A stretch of 29,601 nucleotides of DNA from a virus (lineage: Duplodnaviria > Heunggongvirae > Uroviricota > Caudoviricetes). Position numbers: made by a program. The DNA is taken from the IMG/VR virus record IMGVR_UViG_2657245500_000006, positions 1 to 29,601 of that record; one strand, 5' to 3'. Below, in pieces: positions 9,001 to 15,000 of the stretch. Numbering within the stretch: the stretch's first letter is position 1; every line of letters begins with the position of its first letter.

Positions 9001-12000
9001 TAAACGTGCTGAGGCTGCTACAGTTAGTGCTGAAGAAGCCAGACGTATGGCTGAGAATGCACGAGGACCTAAAGGCGATACAGGGCCGAAAGGTGATGCT
9101 GGTCCTCGTGGTGAAACAGGTCCGGCGGGTCCGCGTGGGGAGAAAGGTGAGCAGGGAGAGCGCGGACCTCAGGGCATACCGGGCCAGAAAGGTGATACAG
9201 GAGAACGGGGACCTCAGGGAGTGCAGGGGCCAGCTGGCGCAACAGGGCCATCTGGCCCACGTGGTGCGACCGGGCCACAGGGAGCAATGGGGCCGCGTGG
9301 TGAAACCGGGGCCAGAGGCGAAAAAGGAGACCCGGGGGGGCCTCAGGGACCAAAGGGGGATACTGGTCCGAGAGGTGAGCCGGGGCCGGCAGGAGCAAAG
9401 GGAGAGCGCGGTGAGACCGGACCTGCGGGGCCGAAAGGGGAACCCGGGGAACGTGGTCCGCAAGGATTACAGGGCCCCGCCGGAGAGAGAGGTGAACCGG
9501 GTCCGGCAGGTCCGAAAGGTGAACGAGGCGAAGCTGGACCTCAGGGACCTCGTGGGGAGCCAGGCCCGGCGGGCAGCGCAGCAAATGTGGCAGATGCGAC
9601 GACGGCACAGAAGGGAATTGTGCAGTTAAGCAGCGCAACGGACAGTGATGATGAAACGAAGGCAGCCACACCGAAAGCTGTGAAGGCGGCAATGGATGAG
9701 GCCAGGGCAGCGAAACAGAAGGCAGAAGAGGTTGCGACAACCCGCCCGTCGGGAGAAAGCATACCTGGACCGAAAGGTGACAGGGGCGAGCAAGGACCGG
9801 CAGGTCCCACAGGTCCGAAAGGTGAGCGCGGTGAACCCGGACCTCAGGGGCCTGCAGGACAGAAAGGTGAGCAGGGCCTCCGTGGGCTGCAGGGGGCGAC
9901 AGGACCTGCGGGAGCAGTGGGGCCCGCAGGCCCACGGGGACCGGCTGGTGCAGCTGGTCCCAAAGGTGATGCAGGCCCGACCGGACCCCGGGGTCAAAAA
10001 GGTGATACAGGACCTGCAGGTCCGCAGGGACCAGCTGGCCCGGCAGGCCCACAGGGGGTTGCCGGAAGGGACGGCAATGTTTCCACCGGGAAATATGCGG
10101 TTGGTTCTTATGTTTTTGGCGTGTCCTCTGTCTATGCTGACGGCGAAGGCTTATTTTCATCAGGGATATATGAAAACATTCAGGGTAGCTCCATTGATCT
10201 GATTTCAATACAGACAACACAAACAGGCGCATCAACACCAAATCAAATCTGGTTTTTGAAACTGGAGGAGGACATTCCGGGGGTGTGGCGGGCATTTAAA
10301 CCCGCCGCATATATTGATCTGATGCCAGAAGGAATGCAAGGAGGAAAGAACTCGATGTTTAACTTTATTACTCTTTTCCAGCGGATAGCGTAACGAGGTA
10401 CGGCATGATAATAGCGATCAGTGCGGTTAAGGATCCGGTATATACCAGGCAGGGATGTATCAACTGTCTGGTGAAACTCACCGGAGTTGACGAGGAGGAG
10501 ACGGACTGGCTTCCGTTTACGGCGACACCAACGGACGAAGCCCCTCATGGAAAAGAACTCTGGCAGGCACTGAACTCAGGTCAATATGGTCAAATCGCGC
10601 CGTATACTCAACCGGAAGATGCGGTGGAAAAAGCCAGACAACAGAAAATTAATGAGATCAACGCCTGGCGTAATGCGATGGAAGCGGCGAACTACACGTT
10701 TGAGCACAATGGGCGTAAATGGGACTACGGGAAGTCAACGCAGACGCGTCTTGAGCCGTCGGTGGCTGCCGCGAAAGCAGGAATACTGCCGGAGGGTTTT
10801 TTCTGGACGGATGCGGAGAATAACGACGTCCCGATGACGGCTGGGGAGCTGATGGCACTCAGTGAGGCGGCGGAGAAGGCGATGTTCACCAAAGGGATGG
10901 AAATTCATGTCAGACAGCGCACGATGAAAAAAGAGATTGAAGCGCTGGGTGATGCGGAAGCTATACTGGCGTATAAGGTCGGCATGGCTGACAGGTGAAA
11001 AAAAGAGGGGCGCTCCAGCCCCTTGCTACAAAGCTATGGCTAAATAAAGAATACTCAGGTCGAGGAAATAATCTGGCAATGATAATTAAAGGAGATGCAA
11101 CGGCCTCCTTCACCCCTGTCAAAGATAAAAAACTGGGGAGTGCGTGCTCCCCGAGAGCATGATACTTGTGGTTGATAGTTATTTTTATCCGGCGACAAAG
11201 ATATTGAGATGAGGTCGCGGATGCAATACAGAATTTTCGTATTGCATGGTAACTGCTGATTCCTGAAACTGAAAGTCGTCATGAAACTGTAAGCGAAAAA
11301 ACGGGGAGACGGCACGCTCCCCAAGGTCATACATGAGATAGTGGTGTTTTTATAGTCGAAAGAATAATTGCATAAAAAGAGTGTAAATTAAACATTCAGG
11401 GGATACAGAATTTTCGTAGGCTGAGGGATTGCTGAAAATAATTTAGTGCGTCCTTCAATGGTCACTCAATAGTCATCAGATTGTGCTGATGTAAACAGTT
11501 AAGCACAATTTGATTATTTGACTTTCTTCTTTTTGTGACTAACTTCACAATTAAAGATGTAACCGTATACAAATTGTTGATGAATAAAGAGACAGCATAA
11601 GTGGCAGGCCAGTCGTAATGCGGATATCCCTTCGCGAACGTGATATCACCGACGTTATAGTAAGGAAATTCCGAAAAACTTCATATTAAAATTCGGAATT
11701 TCTTCAGGAGTAAGCTCATGATAGCGGCGAGACATCAGATTTTCTTTATATATCCGATGTTGAACTGTTTTATTTGTATACAGATAATTTTATAGGGTAT
11801 ACCACATGAGCAAGAAATTTACAAAGGCTGTTTTGTCTGCGGCAATGGCAGGTGTTTTGTTTGGGGTTAGCTTTGATATTATGGCTGCTGAGCAATCTTA
11901 TTCTGCTTTAAATGCTCAGAACGGCGCTGGGAGTATTTATAAAGTATATTATAACCCAGATAATAAAACGGCACATATTGATTGGGGTGGCTTAGGTGAT

Positions 12001-15000
12001 GTGGAAAAAGAGCGAAATAAGCCGATTCCACTTCTCAGTAAAATAGATGGCAATGGTAATGTTACAATTACCTCCGCAGACGGCTCAACAACATTTACTG
12101 TTTATGATAAAGAAGTTCATGATTTCATGAAGGCTGCGGCATCAGGGAAAACTGATGATATTAAGACAAACCTCCTGACAGAACAGAATATCCGTGACCT
12201 GTACAACCGCGTTTCAGCAATCCAGCAGATGGAAACCAACGTCGGCCTGGATGAGTATGGAAATGTGGCTGTAACACCGAATGAAATAAAAGAACGCGTA
12301 TCTTTGCAGCGCTATCTGGCATGGGAGTCCGCCAACTCCACCATTGTTGCGAATGAGCTTGAAGCTCAGAAAGGCAAGCTTGATGCTCAGAAAGGCGAGC
12401 TTGAAGCGCAGAAGAAAAATCTTGGTGAACTGACCACGCGTACCGACAAGATTGATGCTGCGGCTGCTGCAACAGCTGCAAAAGTCGAATCCCGCACACT
12501 GGTTGGTGTGAGTTCTGATGGCACCCTGACCCGTGCAGAAGGTGCAAAGAACACCATTTCTGTTAACGATGGTCTGGTGGCCCTGTCTGGTCGTACTGAC
12601 CGTATTGATGCAGCAGTTGGTGCCATTGATGGCCGTGTCACCCGTAACACGCAATCCATTGAGAAAAACAGCAAGGCGATTGCAGCCAATACCCGTACGC
12701 TGCAGCAACATTCAGCACGTCTGGACAGCCAGCAGCGCCAGATTAATGAAAACCACAAGGAAATGAAACGAGCAGCAGCACAGTCTGCGGCCCTGACTGG
12801 TCTGTTCCAGCCGTACAGCGTGGGTAAATTCAACGCGTCAGCAGCGGTGGGTGGTTACAGCGATGAGCAGGCACTGGCAGTGGGTGTGGGTTACCGCTTC
12901 AACGAGCAGACCGCAGCGAAAGCAGGCGTGGCATTCAGTGATGGGGATGCCTCCTGGAACGTTGGTGTGAACTTCGAGTTTTAATTGCTGAAGGTGACAT
13001 GAAGTATGACGGCAGGCACAGGAGTTTTGCCTGCCGTTTTTTTTCATGGGGCATAAAAACAGGAAGGTGCTGCGATGAAGGTAATTCTGGCCACAAGGAA
13101 CCGCTACCTGGAATATGGACTGCAACAGTTGCTGAAGGAACACAGTGTGATACTGGCGAGGGAGTTTTTCCTGCCGGAGAACCGCCGTTATATCCCGGAC
13201 TTTGACGAATCCTGGCTGATAATCAGTGATGGCCTGCTGGGCAGGCTGATGCGCTGTATGTTCCAGGGGCGTCATTTTCTGCAACTGGATGCGGAGTTGC
13301 TCCGTGATGGCGAACAGATAAGTGATGCCATACGCAACGGCGTGTGGACGTATAACAGTGTTGCCCGCCCGCTGACGATGTCAGAGATGGTGGTGATGTT
13401 CGGTTATGTCTACCGCCAGTCGAGACCCTGTCGCCTTGCCAGTGAAATGGGTATCCACACGAAGACGGTGAATACCTTTCTGTATACGGGAATGGCGAAA
13501 AACGGGCTGTATGGTGTGAGCGTCAGACGGCTTGTTGGTGCCTGATGGCGGTCCTGCCGGATGCGCAGAATCTTCTGATAGTTCAGAAGGTGCAGATGAT
13601 GAATAAAGAGAGATGCCGGACAATCGGAAGAAAACGTTACACCACAGGCGCAATGTGCTTCATGCTGTTTGTGTGGCTTGGTGGTGTGCTGGCTCTTGTT
13701 GCTACAGCTGCGGTGGTAATGCAGTAAAAAAAGGGGAGCAACATGCTCCCCGACCAGAAGAAAGACGTTTGATAACAATTAGTGAGTTGTTACGTCTTGT
13801 CCAGAATATCATAGCAACACTCTGTTGCAGTGATACCGATCGCGATTTTAGCGAATTCCATCATAAATCCCCTGATTTTTAAGCCTGAAGCAGTCAAAGG
13901 AATTTCTATGCCCTATATCGATATCACCACGATGCGTGGGATGATGCCGCGCGTTGTGACATCCATGCTGCCCGAGCATTCCGCTGTACTGGCGGAGGAC
14001 TGCCATTTCCGGTTTGGTGTTATTACACCAGAACGTCAGATATCCGGGGTTGAGAAAACATTCACAATTAAGCCAAAAACAATTTTTCATTACCGTGACG
14101 ATTTCTGGTTTGCATGGCCGGATGTGGTGGATGTGATCCGCAGTCCGATCGCTCAGGACCCCCACGGGCGTATTTACTACACTGACGGGCGTTTTCCTAA
14201 AGTGACGGATGCGACCATTGCCACAAAAGGGGACGGGAATCACCCGACATCATCGTATCGTCTTGGGATCCCCGCGCCGACGACAGCTCCTGTCTGTACT
14301 GTCCAGCAGGGCGGTGATGTTTCTGACGATAACCCGAATGATGATGAAACCCGGTTTTATACGGAAACCTTTGTCTCAGATTATGGTGAAGAAGGTCCGC
14401 CAGGTCCGGCGTCTCTGGAGGTAACACTCCGTACTCCGGGAACTGCGGTACAACTGACGCTGGCTCCGGTGCCATTGCAGAATGCCAGTATTAAACGTCG
14501 TCGTATTTATCGTTCTGCATCAGGTGGAGGGGAGGCGGATTTTTTACTTGTGGCTGAACTGGATGCATCCGTGCTCAGTTACACGGACAAAATACCGGCG
14601 AAAAACCTTGGACCTTCGCTGGCGACATGGGATTACCTGCCGCCGCCAGAGAATATGACAGGCCTTTGCCTGATGGCTAACGGTATTGCCGCCGGGTTTG
14701 CCGGTAATGAAGTGATGTTTTCGGAAGCGTATCTGCCGTATGCATGGCCGGAAGTGAATCGTCACACGACGGCAGAAGATATTGTAGCTATCTGTCCGCT
14801 CGGAACGTCACTGGTGGTGGCGACAAAGGGTGAGCCTTATCTGTTCAGTGGTGTATCGCCTTCCACAATTTCCGGCTCCAGAATTCCTTCAATGCAGGCG
14901 TGTCTGAGCAGGCGGAGTATGGTCGCGATGGAGGGCTTTGTGCTGTATGCAGGAACAAATGGCCTGGTGTCTGTTGATGCAAACGGTAATGCCGCTCTGG

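Follow-up and report, generated by a model that had tools for sequence, protein, structure and literature searches.

The 29,601-nucleotide (nt) stretch analyzed here, referred to below as the window (IMG/VR virus record IMGVR_UViG_2657245500_000006, positions 1 to 29,601; contig CYUC01000056.1 of assembly GCA_001299315.1), carries a prophage-borne gene of a trimeric autotransporter adhesin (TAA) which, judged by its sequence, is eibA of Escherichia coli. This gene has previously been characterized experimentally, and the finding is a correct re-identification of something already known. The open reading frame (ORF) concerned is as follows.

11806..12984, plus strand: eibA coding sequence (CDS), 392 amino acids (aa) plus stop codon, ATG-initiated in the ORF call, the product ending in NVGVNFEF

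A tblastn search of the phage collection revealed that the product is identical, in 392 of 392 aa, to that of eibA of prophage P-EibA from E. coli ECOR-9 (GenBank AF151091). The CDS differs from AF151091 at none of its 1179 nt, and the same is true of the comparison with two further assemblies (L004 and L005). The exact 392-aa sequence carries the UniRef name EIBA_ECOLX (UniProt Q9LA60). A preliminary description of this DNA had proposed an Eib-type protein and had chosen the name EibA on the basis of length; since the identity to eibA of AF151091 is complete, the name no longer depends on that argument. We hold it to be nearly certain that the gene product is EibA and works as an Fc receptor of the trimeric autotransporter type, i.e. 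that the gene is the known lysogenic-conversion gene of prophages.

The homology check proposed earlier did not return a TAA from outside the Eib family as the best match. Among solved structures, the best matches of EibA are two EibD constructs, 2xqh (E = 1.7e-31) and 2xzr (E = 5.4e-27), which cover aa 216–323, and the YadA anchor 2lme ranks behind them (E = 5e-18).

The eibA allele is rare. It was identical in none of the complete E. coli genomes of the collection, where the best full-length match was 95.3% identical, and at least 80% of eibA was covered in 10 of 5426 E. coli genomes. The exact protein was found on only four contigs of a large protein collection.

The value of the result lies in correct annotation, as automatic pipelines attach a generic YadA label to EibA, an Fc-binding protein associated with serum resistance. 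The NCBI label of the exact protein reads merely "YadA C-terminal domain-containing protein", which would equally suit an adhesin (YadA-, UpaG-, Saa- or Cla-like) that binds no immunoglobulin (Ig) and shares only the anchor with the Eib proteins. The matches to the NCBIfam YadA and EmaA models, all of which stayed below cut-off (YadA_autotrans with 63 bits; cut-off, 750), and the N-terminal half of EibA, which is unrelated to that of EibC, EibD and EibE, can also be cited for such an adhesin. This explanation is already refuted by the 100% identity to the founding EibA. Moreover, the stalk segment with the determinant for the Fc part of immunoglobulin G (IgG) is identical to that of EibD, critical Asp included, whereas the Cla proteins are devoid of this Asp and show less than 50% similarity to the Eibs (PMC13534694). 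We therefore give a non-Ig-binding adhesin practically no credence.

Domain anatomy of EibA and its predicted IgG-binding stalk

The signal peptide, the coiled-coil stalk with repeated segments and the YadA-like anchor of the preliminary description were all recovered by ORF calling, hydropathy analysis, repeat search and Pfam comparison. The domains are arranged in the following order.

11806..11886, plus strand: Sec-type signal peptide, aa 1–27, MSKKFTKAVLSAAMAGVLFGVSFDIMA followed by AEQ (sequence reading and hydropathy scan)
11887..12354, plus strand: EibA-type N-terminal passenger ("Eib region"), aa 28–183, without YadA-like head or neck (Pfam, alignment)
12355..12427, plus strand: three tandem 21-nt repeats forming the start of the stalk, aa 184–209, LEAQKGKLDAQKGELEAQKKNLGEL (repeat search)
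12502..12594, plus strand: saddle-type insert, aa 233–263, VGVSSDGTLTRAEGAKNTISVNDGLVALSGR (common to EibC, EibD and EibE; near-invariant in the Eib alignment)
12598..12702, plus strand: stalk segment, aa 265–299, equivalent to EibD 384–418, with the mapped IgG-Fc determinant (comparison with EibD)
12805..12981, plus strand: YadA-like C-terminal membrane anchor, aa 334–392 (Pfam PF03895)

The signal peptide is composed of a basic n-region (KK..K) and a 16-aa hydrophobic core (aa 8–23; 12-aa Kyte-Doolittle means up to 2.2). Cleavage is predicted between IMA and AEQ, with I-M-A at positions −3 to −1 and small residues at −1/−3. The first six residues are invariant in an alignment of EibA, EibC, EibD, EibE and a homologue from phage PhiR5_2. 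In this alignment EibA appears as a mosaic, in which the part between approx. aa 12 and 230 is specific to EibA and the part from approx. aa 230 to the C-terminus is near-identical across the aligned Eibs. The last 165 aa show 94% identity to EibC and EibD, with the collinear similarity stopping near aa 237; identity to EibE (tblastn) amounts to 76%.

A YadA-like head and neck were searched for with Pfam: matches of the PF05658/PF05662 type were absent from EibA at E ≤ 0.1, and from aa 28–215 even at E ≤ 10. The columns of the Eib alignment that hold the YadA-like head and neck are gaps for EibA, and the absence of such a head is likewise given in PMC7568254. Pfam matches in aa 28–215 at E ≤ 10 were confined to sub-threshold noise, including aRib (E = 0.0066, below the cut-off). 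When 1.84 billion representative proteins were scanned in full with HMMER, the N-terminal region had matches in only seven clusters at E ≤ 0.001, and all named relatives that were looked up are E. coli TAAs with a YadA anchor and differing stalks. The EibA-type N-terminal region is therefore a very narrow family. It is paired with a neck and stalk of EibD type in protein P0125 and with a C-terminus of EibE type in P0123, pairings which illustrate domain shuffling inside the Eib family.

The repeats at the start of the stalk correspond to three heptads at aa 184–208, L-E/D-A-Q-K-G/K-x, in exact register (spacing of 21 and 21 nt, 77–100% identity, AQK at aa 187, 194 and 201). The saddle-type insert that follows, named after the EibD and EibG literature (PMC13534694, PMC12511318), falls within the part of EibA (aa 216–299) that aligns to the EibD crystal construct 2xqh. 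Seven contiguous heptads of a left-handed coiled coil, with V, I, L or M at position a and N, H, Q or A at position d, can be read from the sequence at aa 278–326. The anchor matches the full PF03895 (YadA_anchor) model, positions 1–60 of 60, with E = 2.4e-17 and 63 bits (cut-off, 22.7), and is predicted to provide four beta strands per chain to a 12-stranded trimeric barrel. EibA has been observed to migrate as a trimer, with an expected size of 121 kDa (PMC7568254).

In an AlphaFold2 (AF2) model of the monomer, built from a 33-sequence alignment, the mean predicted local distance difference test score (pLDDT) was 52, the predicted template modelling score (pTM) was 0.32 and the anchor was unfolded. 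A poor monomer is to be expected, because the protein is an obligate trimer and the alignment is shallow. With low confidence, the model suggests strands at aa 30–100, long helices at aa 167–228 and 253–333, and a non-helical saddle.

This anatomy also bears on the possibility that EibA is a component of the virion tail and not a surface protein of the lysogen. The "tail" category of PHROG contains two families matched by the protein (phrog_17426 "adhesin" and phrog_26246 "tail protein"), weak C-terminal tblastn matches (approx. 32% identity) were found to "tail protein / agglutinating adhesin" genes of phiEco32-like phages, the neighbours of eibA encode tail fibres, and a YadA-anchor-like domain is found at the end of some tail proteins of phages. 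Against this, EibA has both a signal peptide for Sec and an outer-membrane barrel anchor of full length, and its gene has a terminator of its own; in addition, the collinear phage 933W is viable without eibA, and EibA has been seen as a trimer on the cell surface (PMC7568254). A role in the virion can thus be regarded as extremely improbable, and we return to EibA as a surface protein of the lysogen.

The stalk segment with the IgG-Fc determinant is conserved. Residues 272–299 of EibA are identical to EibD 391–418, and the motif TDRID lies at residue 264 of EibA and 383 of EibD. D268 of EibA corresponds to D387 of EibD, and A269 to EibD Y388; Ala also occupies the latter position in EibG, which binds IgG. 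In EibG, exchange of the equivalent Asp for Ala (D391A) led to loss of IgG Fc binding, and binding was kept by an EibG derivative from which nearly the whole passenger had been removed (PMC13534694). The same paper prints "EibD D378-Y388" for the IgG-Fc residues. Position 378 of the deposited EibD sequence (L007, 975–2507) is occupied by Ala and position 387 by Asp, and "D378" is probably a slip for D387.

Residues 329–344 of EibD are missing from EibA in the alignment. The IgA-binding site of EibD treated by Leo et al. in 2011 reportedly lies around these residues. EibA binds IgG but is not known to bind IgA.

The Ig binding, serum resistance, aggregation and regulation of EibA are taken from the literature, and the sequence identity, domain anatomy, terminator and context were computed in this study. 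The Eibs of ECOR-9, including EibA, are described as heat-stable multimers detected with human IgG Fc in PMC5450701 and PMC12511318 (both citing Sandt & Hill 2000), and the latter implicates EibA in Ig binding and serum resistance. EibA has also been found to promote autoaggregation and biofilm formation, and cells expressing EibD are excluded from EibA aggregates (PMC7568254).

Combined with family knowledge of type Vc secretion, these data suggest the following mechanism. The 27-aa signal peptide would direct each chain through Sec; three anchors (aa 334–392) would assemble into one 12-stranded barrel, assisted by the beta-barrel assembly machinery (BAM); and the passenger would be exported via this barrel and then fold as a trimeric fibre. 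The fibre would be made up of (i) the head-less EibA N-terminal region, (ii) the heptad coiled coil, (iii) the saddle, and (iv) the left-handed coiled coil, with polar Asn/His/Gln layers in its core. Its membrane-proximal stalk (aa 265–299, including D268) would bind IgG Fc in a non-immunological manner. Serum resistance, autoaggregation and biofilm formation are the traits linked to EibA by published work, and high expression reportedly requires the unlinked regulators IbrAB together with static growth.

Control elements and expression of eibA

The control elements and candidate control elements around the CDS are as follows.

11663..11704, plus strand: 13-bp perfect inverted repeat with a 16-nt loop (−13.8 kcal/mol, z = −3.4), approx. 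100 nt 5′ of the start codon
11760..11788, plus strand: candidate sigma-70 promoter, TTGAAC-17-GATAAT (hexamer scan, 9 of 12 matches)
11772..11790, plus strand: 19-nt block ATTTGTATACAGATAATTT containing the −10 hexamer, invariant upstream of eibA, eibC, eibD, eibE and the PhiR5_2 gene, with variable flanks
12998..13048, plus strand: intrinsic terminator after eibA (−28 kcal/mol, z = −4.87, none of 200 shuffles as stable)

The terminator, already described as strong in the earlier reading of the sequence, consists of an 11-bp G+C-rich stem (13008–13018/13028–13038) with a 9-nt loop, followed by a T-run; it was passed over by a simple terminator scan because of this loop. It coincides with a stem_loop annotated at 5121–5149 of AF151091, and has counterparts after eibC, eibD and eibE. 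The upstream inverted repeat likewise coincides with an annotated stem_loop of AF151091 (3777–3814), and the eibC, eibD and eibE records contain a stem_loop of different sequence at the matching upstream position.

A promoter belonging to the gene itself had also been proposed. The −10 hexamer of the candidate lies within the invariant 19-nt block, from which we infer a control site shared by the eib genes; for such a site, the block is better evidence than the hexamer score. The view of eibA as an AT-rich moron applies to a part of the gene: the GC content of 11000–11805 is 0.39 and that of the 5′ third of the CDS is 0.40, whereas the second and last thirds reach 0.51 and 0.55 (window average, 0.52). 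The low-GC stretch coincides with the EibA-specific cassette. With its own terminator, a conserved promoter-proximal block, an AT-rich 5′ part and absence from the collinear 933W, eibA behaves as a moron.

The reading of the gene as a functional EibA is limited in three respects: (i) the N-terminal anatomy must be considered tentative at a pLDDT of 52, (ii) promoter-like sites in the region numbered 3, compared with 4.8 ± 2.2 in shuffled sequences, i.e. the hexamers are not above chance, and (iii) ibrAB are not among the called genes of the window, in which no Pfam matches of PAPS-reductase or ParB-like type were found. The sequence itself holds nothing that contradicts the EibA reading.

The last two points could mean that eibA is intact but effectively silent, a cryptic passenger that lacks activation by IbrAB. 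Enhancement of Eib surface expression by ibrB is mentioned in PMC7649339 (citing Sandt et al. 2002). According to PMC5450701 and PMC4352079, growth with shaking gives very weak Eib signals, and PMC5450701 describes up-regulation of the ECOR-9 Eibs in static culture. On the other hand, the ECOR-9 copy, which is expressed, has the same bases throughout the ORF with its signal peptide, the terminator and the 250 nt upstream, and ibrAB may be located elsewhere in the genome, of which the window is the part covered here. We consider silence of the gene unlikely; it would in any case affect the level of expression and not the identity of the gene as eibA.

The eib module and its prophage backbone

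The genes flanking eibA, and the block that the window shares with P-EibA, are as follows.

10405..10998, plus strand: orf-191 homologue, DUF4376, tail-fibre/assembly-like (Pfam DUF4376, E = 1e-19; PHROG 1141 "tail fiber protein", E = 8e-80)
13075..13545, plus strand: orf-156 (PHROG 6585, function unknown)
13545..13727, plus strand: orf-60 (PHROG 9340, function unknown), ending in a hydrophobic stretch
11557..13566, plus strand: block of 100% nt identity to P-EibA (AF151091, 3669–5678), 2,010 nt, the longest mismatch-free run

The identical block extends from the upstream control region through eibA, its terminator and orf-156 into the first part of orf-60. Its flanks diverge (8–80 mismatches per 100 nt), and similarity to AF151091 as a whole spans only positions 10654–13727 of the window, with a 114-nt indel at 11222–11337. 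In ECOR-9 the eibA module is located between J-lom-orf-401(stf) and eaaA, which encodes an S6 autotransporter (AF151091), and an allele with 95% identity, from strain NCTC9112, likewise occurs in this lambda-like setting, beside ompW-yciE.

In the window, the module lies in a late region of the type found in 933W and other Shiga toxin (Stx) phages. The upstream backbone comprises a P22-type portal gene, a capsid gene and a collagen-repeat tail-fibre gene (8378–10393), and the downstream backbone comprises L0124/L0125-like genes, Phage_Tail_Tip, Lom and Hok genes and the gene of a giant LPD5/LPD1/MuF_C protein. The closest isolated phages, PhiR5_2, PhiR12_3 and GER2 (87–90% coverage, 96–98% identity), all have an eib-type gene at this position, each with its own, different allele. 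Phage 933W aligns up to window position 9735 and resumes from 13429/13683; L0122/L0123 take the place of the module, and 933W retains remnants of both orf-156 (as L0123) and orf-60.

Since the backbone is of 933W type here and lambda-like (J-lom-stf...eaaA) in P-EibA, the sequences are most simply read as the result of a recombination event that recently carried the eibA cassette between prophages of the two types. The partners of this putative exchange would be morphologically different, namely a lambda-like siphovirus tail region, as in ECOR-9 and NCTC9112, and a 933W/Stx-type podovirus late region, as in the window, and the exchange could have proceeded by recombination in the conserved flanks, i.e. 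orf-191 on one side and orf-156/orf-60 on the other.

The same flanks could also have misled the assembly, in which case the 933W-type context of eibA would be a chimera formed via the orf-191, orf-156 and orf-60 repeats of several eib prophages. ECOR-9 has four such prophages with near-identical flanks; the identical block of approx. 2 kb exceeds the length of short reads; the independent contig L004 stops inside orf-156, as at a repeat boundary; and the right junction is supported by the window contig alone. However, L004, which comes from the independent assembly GCA_965136505.1, shows the junction on the left side as well, with the order capsid - tail fibre - DUF4376 - eibA and 99.4–99.9% identity, the same 29.6-kb contig has been recorded in two samples, and the isolates PhiR5_2, PhiR12_3 and GER2 show the same architecture with other eib alleles. 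Because the left junction is reproduced and the contig occurs in two samples, we judge a chimera to be very unlikely and retain the transfer of the cassette between prophages.

The module has the canonical eib composition. The gene at 10405–10998 shows 83–92% nt identity to orf-191A/C/D/E, and the order orf-191 / eib / orf-156 / orf-60 agrees with the annotation of all four Eib prophages of ECOR-9. orf-156A/C/D/E and orf-60A/C/D are annotated beside eib genes, and both ORFs also accompany the eib gene of PhiR5_2; this conserved linkage suggests a functional connection. Pfam searches with orf-156 and orf-60 gave no match at E ≤ 10, and a LuxR-type helix-turn-helix considered for the end of orf-156 was dropped for this reason. 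An L0124-like gene of 933W type lies 3′ of orf-60, followed by a Phage_Tail_Tip gene. The position given in the preliminary description, between a fibre-assembly-like gene and tail genes, is thus correct for the upstream DUF4376 gene and for the presence of virion genes downstream, but orf-156 and orf-60 intervene between the latter and eibA.

The minus strand between orf-191 and eibA (11126–11480) contains two tandem units of approx. 170 nt, each ending in a GGGGAGC..GCTCCCC hairpin and a T-run. The units have a common core, which includes an exact 16-nt repeat at 11226 and 11403, and a third hairpin of this kind follows orf-60 (13725–13753). The hairpin pattern occurs three times in the window (0 expected), and is found at matching positions in P-EibA, P-EibD, P-EibE, PhiR5_2 and 933W. 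The folds of the units (z = −2.85 for unit 1 and −0.09 for unit 2) are not convincing as structured RNAs. Rfam searches revealed no family at gathering thresholds in the whole window and none at E ≤ 1 in 10950–11850, and the window contains no tRNAs. In the PhiR5_2 record, 49-aa minus-strand ORFs are annotated at the position of these units. The units could be small RNAs (sRNAs), small ORFs or reverse-oriented insulating terminators.

A role of the GGGGAG..CTCCCC hairpin as a specific border of the cassette was ruled out, as the eib-less 933W has the downstream copy, which therefore belongs to the backbone with the orf-60 remnant. In NCTC9112 (L010, 4235–6537) an inserted element of the IS21 family (ISEc12 istAB) separates the DUF4376 gene from the eibA-like one; this insertion site is the AT-rich intergenic region that houses the minus-strand units in the window.

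The move of the module and the minus-strand units can be put together in one tentative proposal, which we regard as possible but doubtful: the eibA module would have moved very recently between prophage types, and the units could be sRNA genes or small ORFs travelling with eib modules. The proposed move is based on the 2,010-nt block with zero mismatches amid sequence that is 5–20% divergent or unrelated.

Several other features of the backbone were recorded. The tail-fibre gene (8378–10393; local GC content, 0.65) encodes a Phage_fiber_2 domain and long Gly-X-Y arrays of collagen type, which Pfam Collagen matches in four stretches (E = 1e-44). Its product has 671 aa in the window and 473 aa in L004, in otherwise near-identical assemblies, a variation consistent with repeat expansion or contraction; prophage collagens of this kind have been described (PMC3368898). 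An ORF at 22184–29601, called as 2473 aa and running past the contig end, encodes the domains LPD5, LPD1 and MuF_C, which phages of 933W type have too. Located 5′ of it are a gene of a small Hok/Gef-family toxin (approx. 18766–18906) and a Lom/Ail outer-membrane gene (17804–18535).

The new point of this analysis is confined to context: eibA in a backbone of Stx-phage type is a small example of the exchange of a virulence cassette between unrelated prophage types. It is relevant to the spread of immune-evasion and adhesion traits among commensal and Shiga-toxigenic E. coli (STEC). No new biological question is opened, and the different context and the upstream minus-strand units are minor additions to what is known of eibA.

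Comparison with known systems

P-EibA (AF151091) has the same protein and CDS as the window, and the two share the entire 2,010-nt block, which contains both the inverted repeat and the promoter-proximal block, as well as the terminator and orf-156. They differ in their surroundings, which in P-EibA are J - lom - orf-401(stf) - orf-191A upstream and eaaA downstream, and in the window are of 933W type. P-EibD resembles the window in having an L0124-like gene downstream as well, and its 96% nt identity to the window reaches position 14271.

EibC, EibD and EibE share with EibA the start of the signal peptide, the saddle, the left-handed stalk with its IgG-Fc segment, the anchor and the flanking genes. 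What they have and EibA lacks is a YadA-like head folded as a left-handed beta-roll, together with a neck and an upstream coiled coil of another kind (PMC7568254).

YadA of Yersinia and the related Oca proteins resemble EibA in their C-terminal anchor, in their trimeric coiled-coil stalk and in the phenotypes of autoaggregation and serum resistance (PMC7568254). YadA differs in having a collagen-binding head and in being encoded by a virulence plasmid, whereas EibA is prophage-borne.

EibG and the ClaA and ClaB proteins, found in STEC that lack the enterocyte effacement locus (LEE), belong to the same class of TAA architecture as EibA and have a similar role in aggregation and serum resistance (PMC13534694). 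EibG and the Cla proteins mediate chain-like adhesion, in contrast to EibA, which gives clumps and not chains; the Cla proteins do not have the IgG-Fc Asp, which EibA retains as D268 (PMC13534694).

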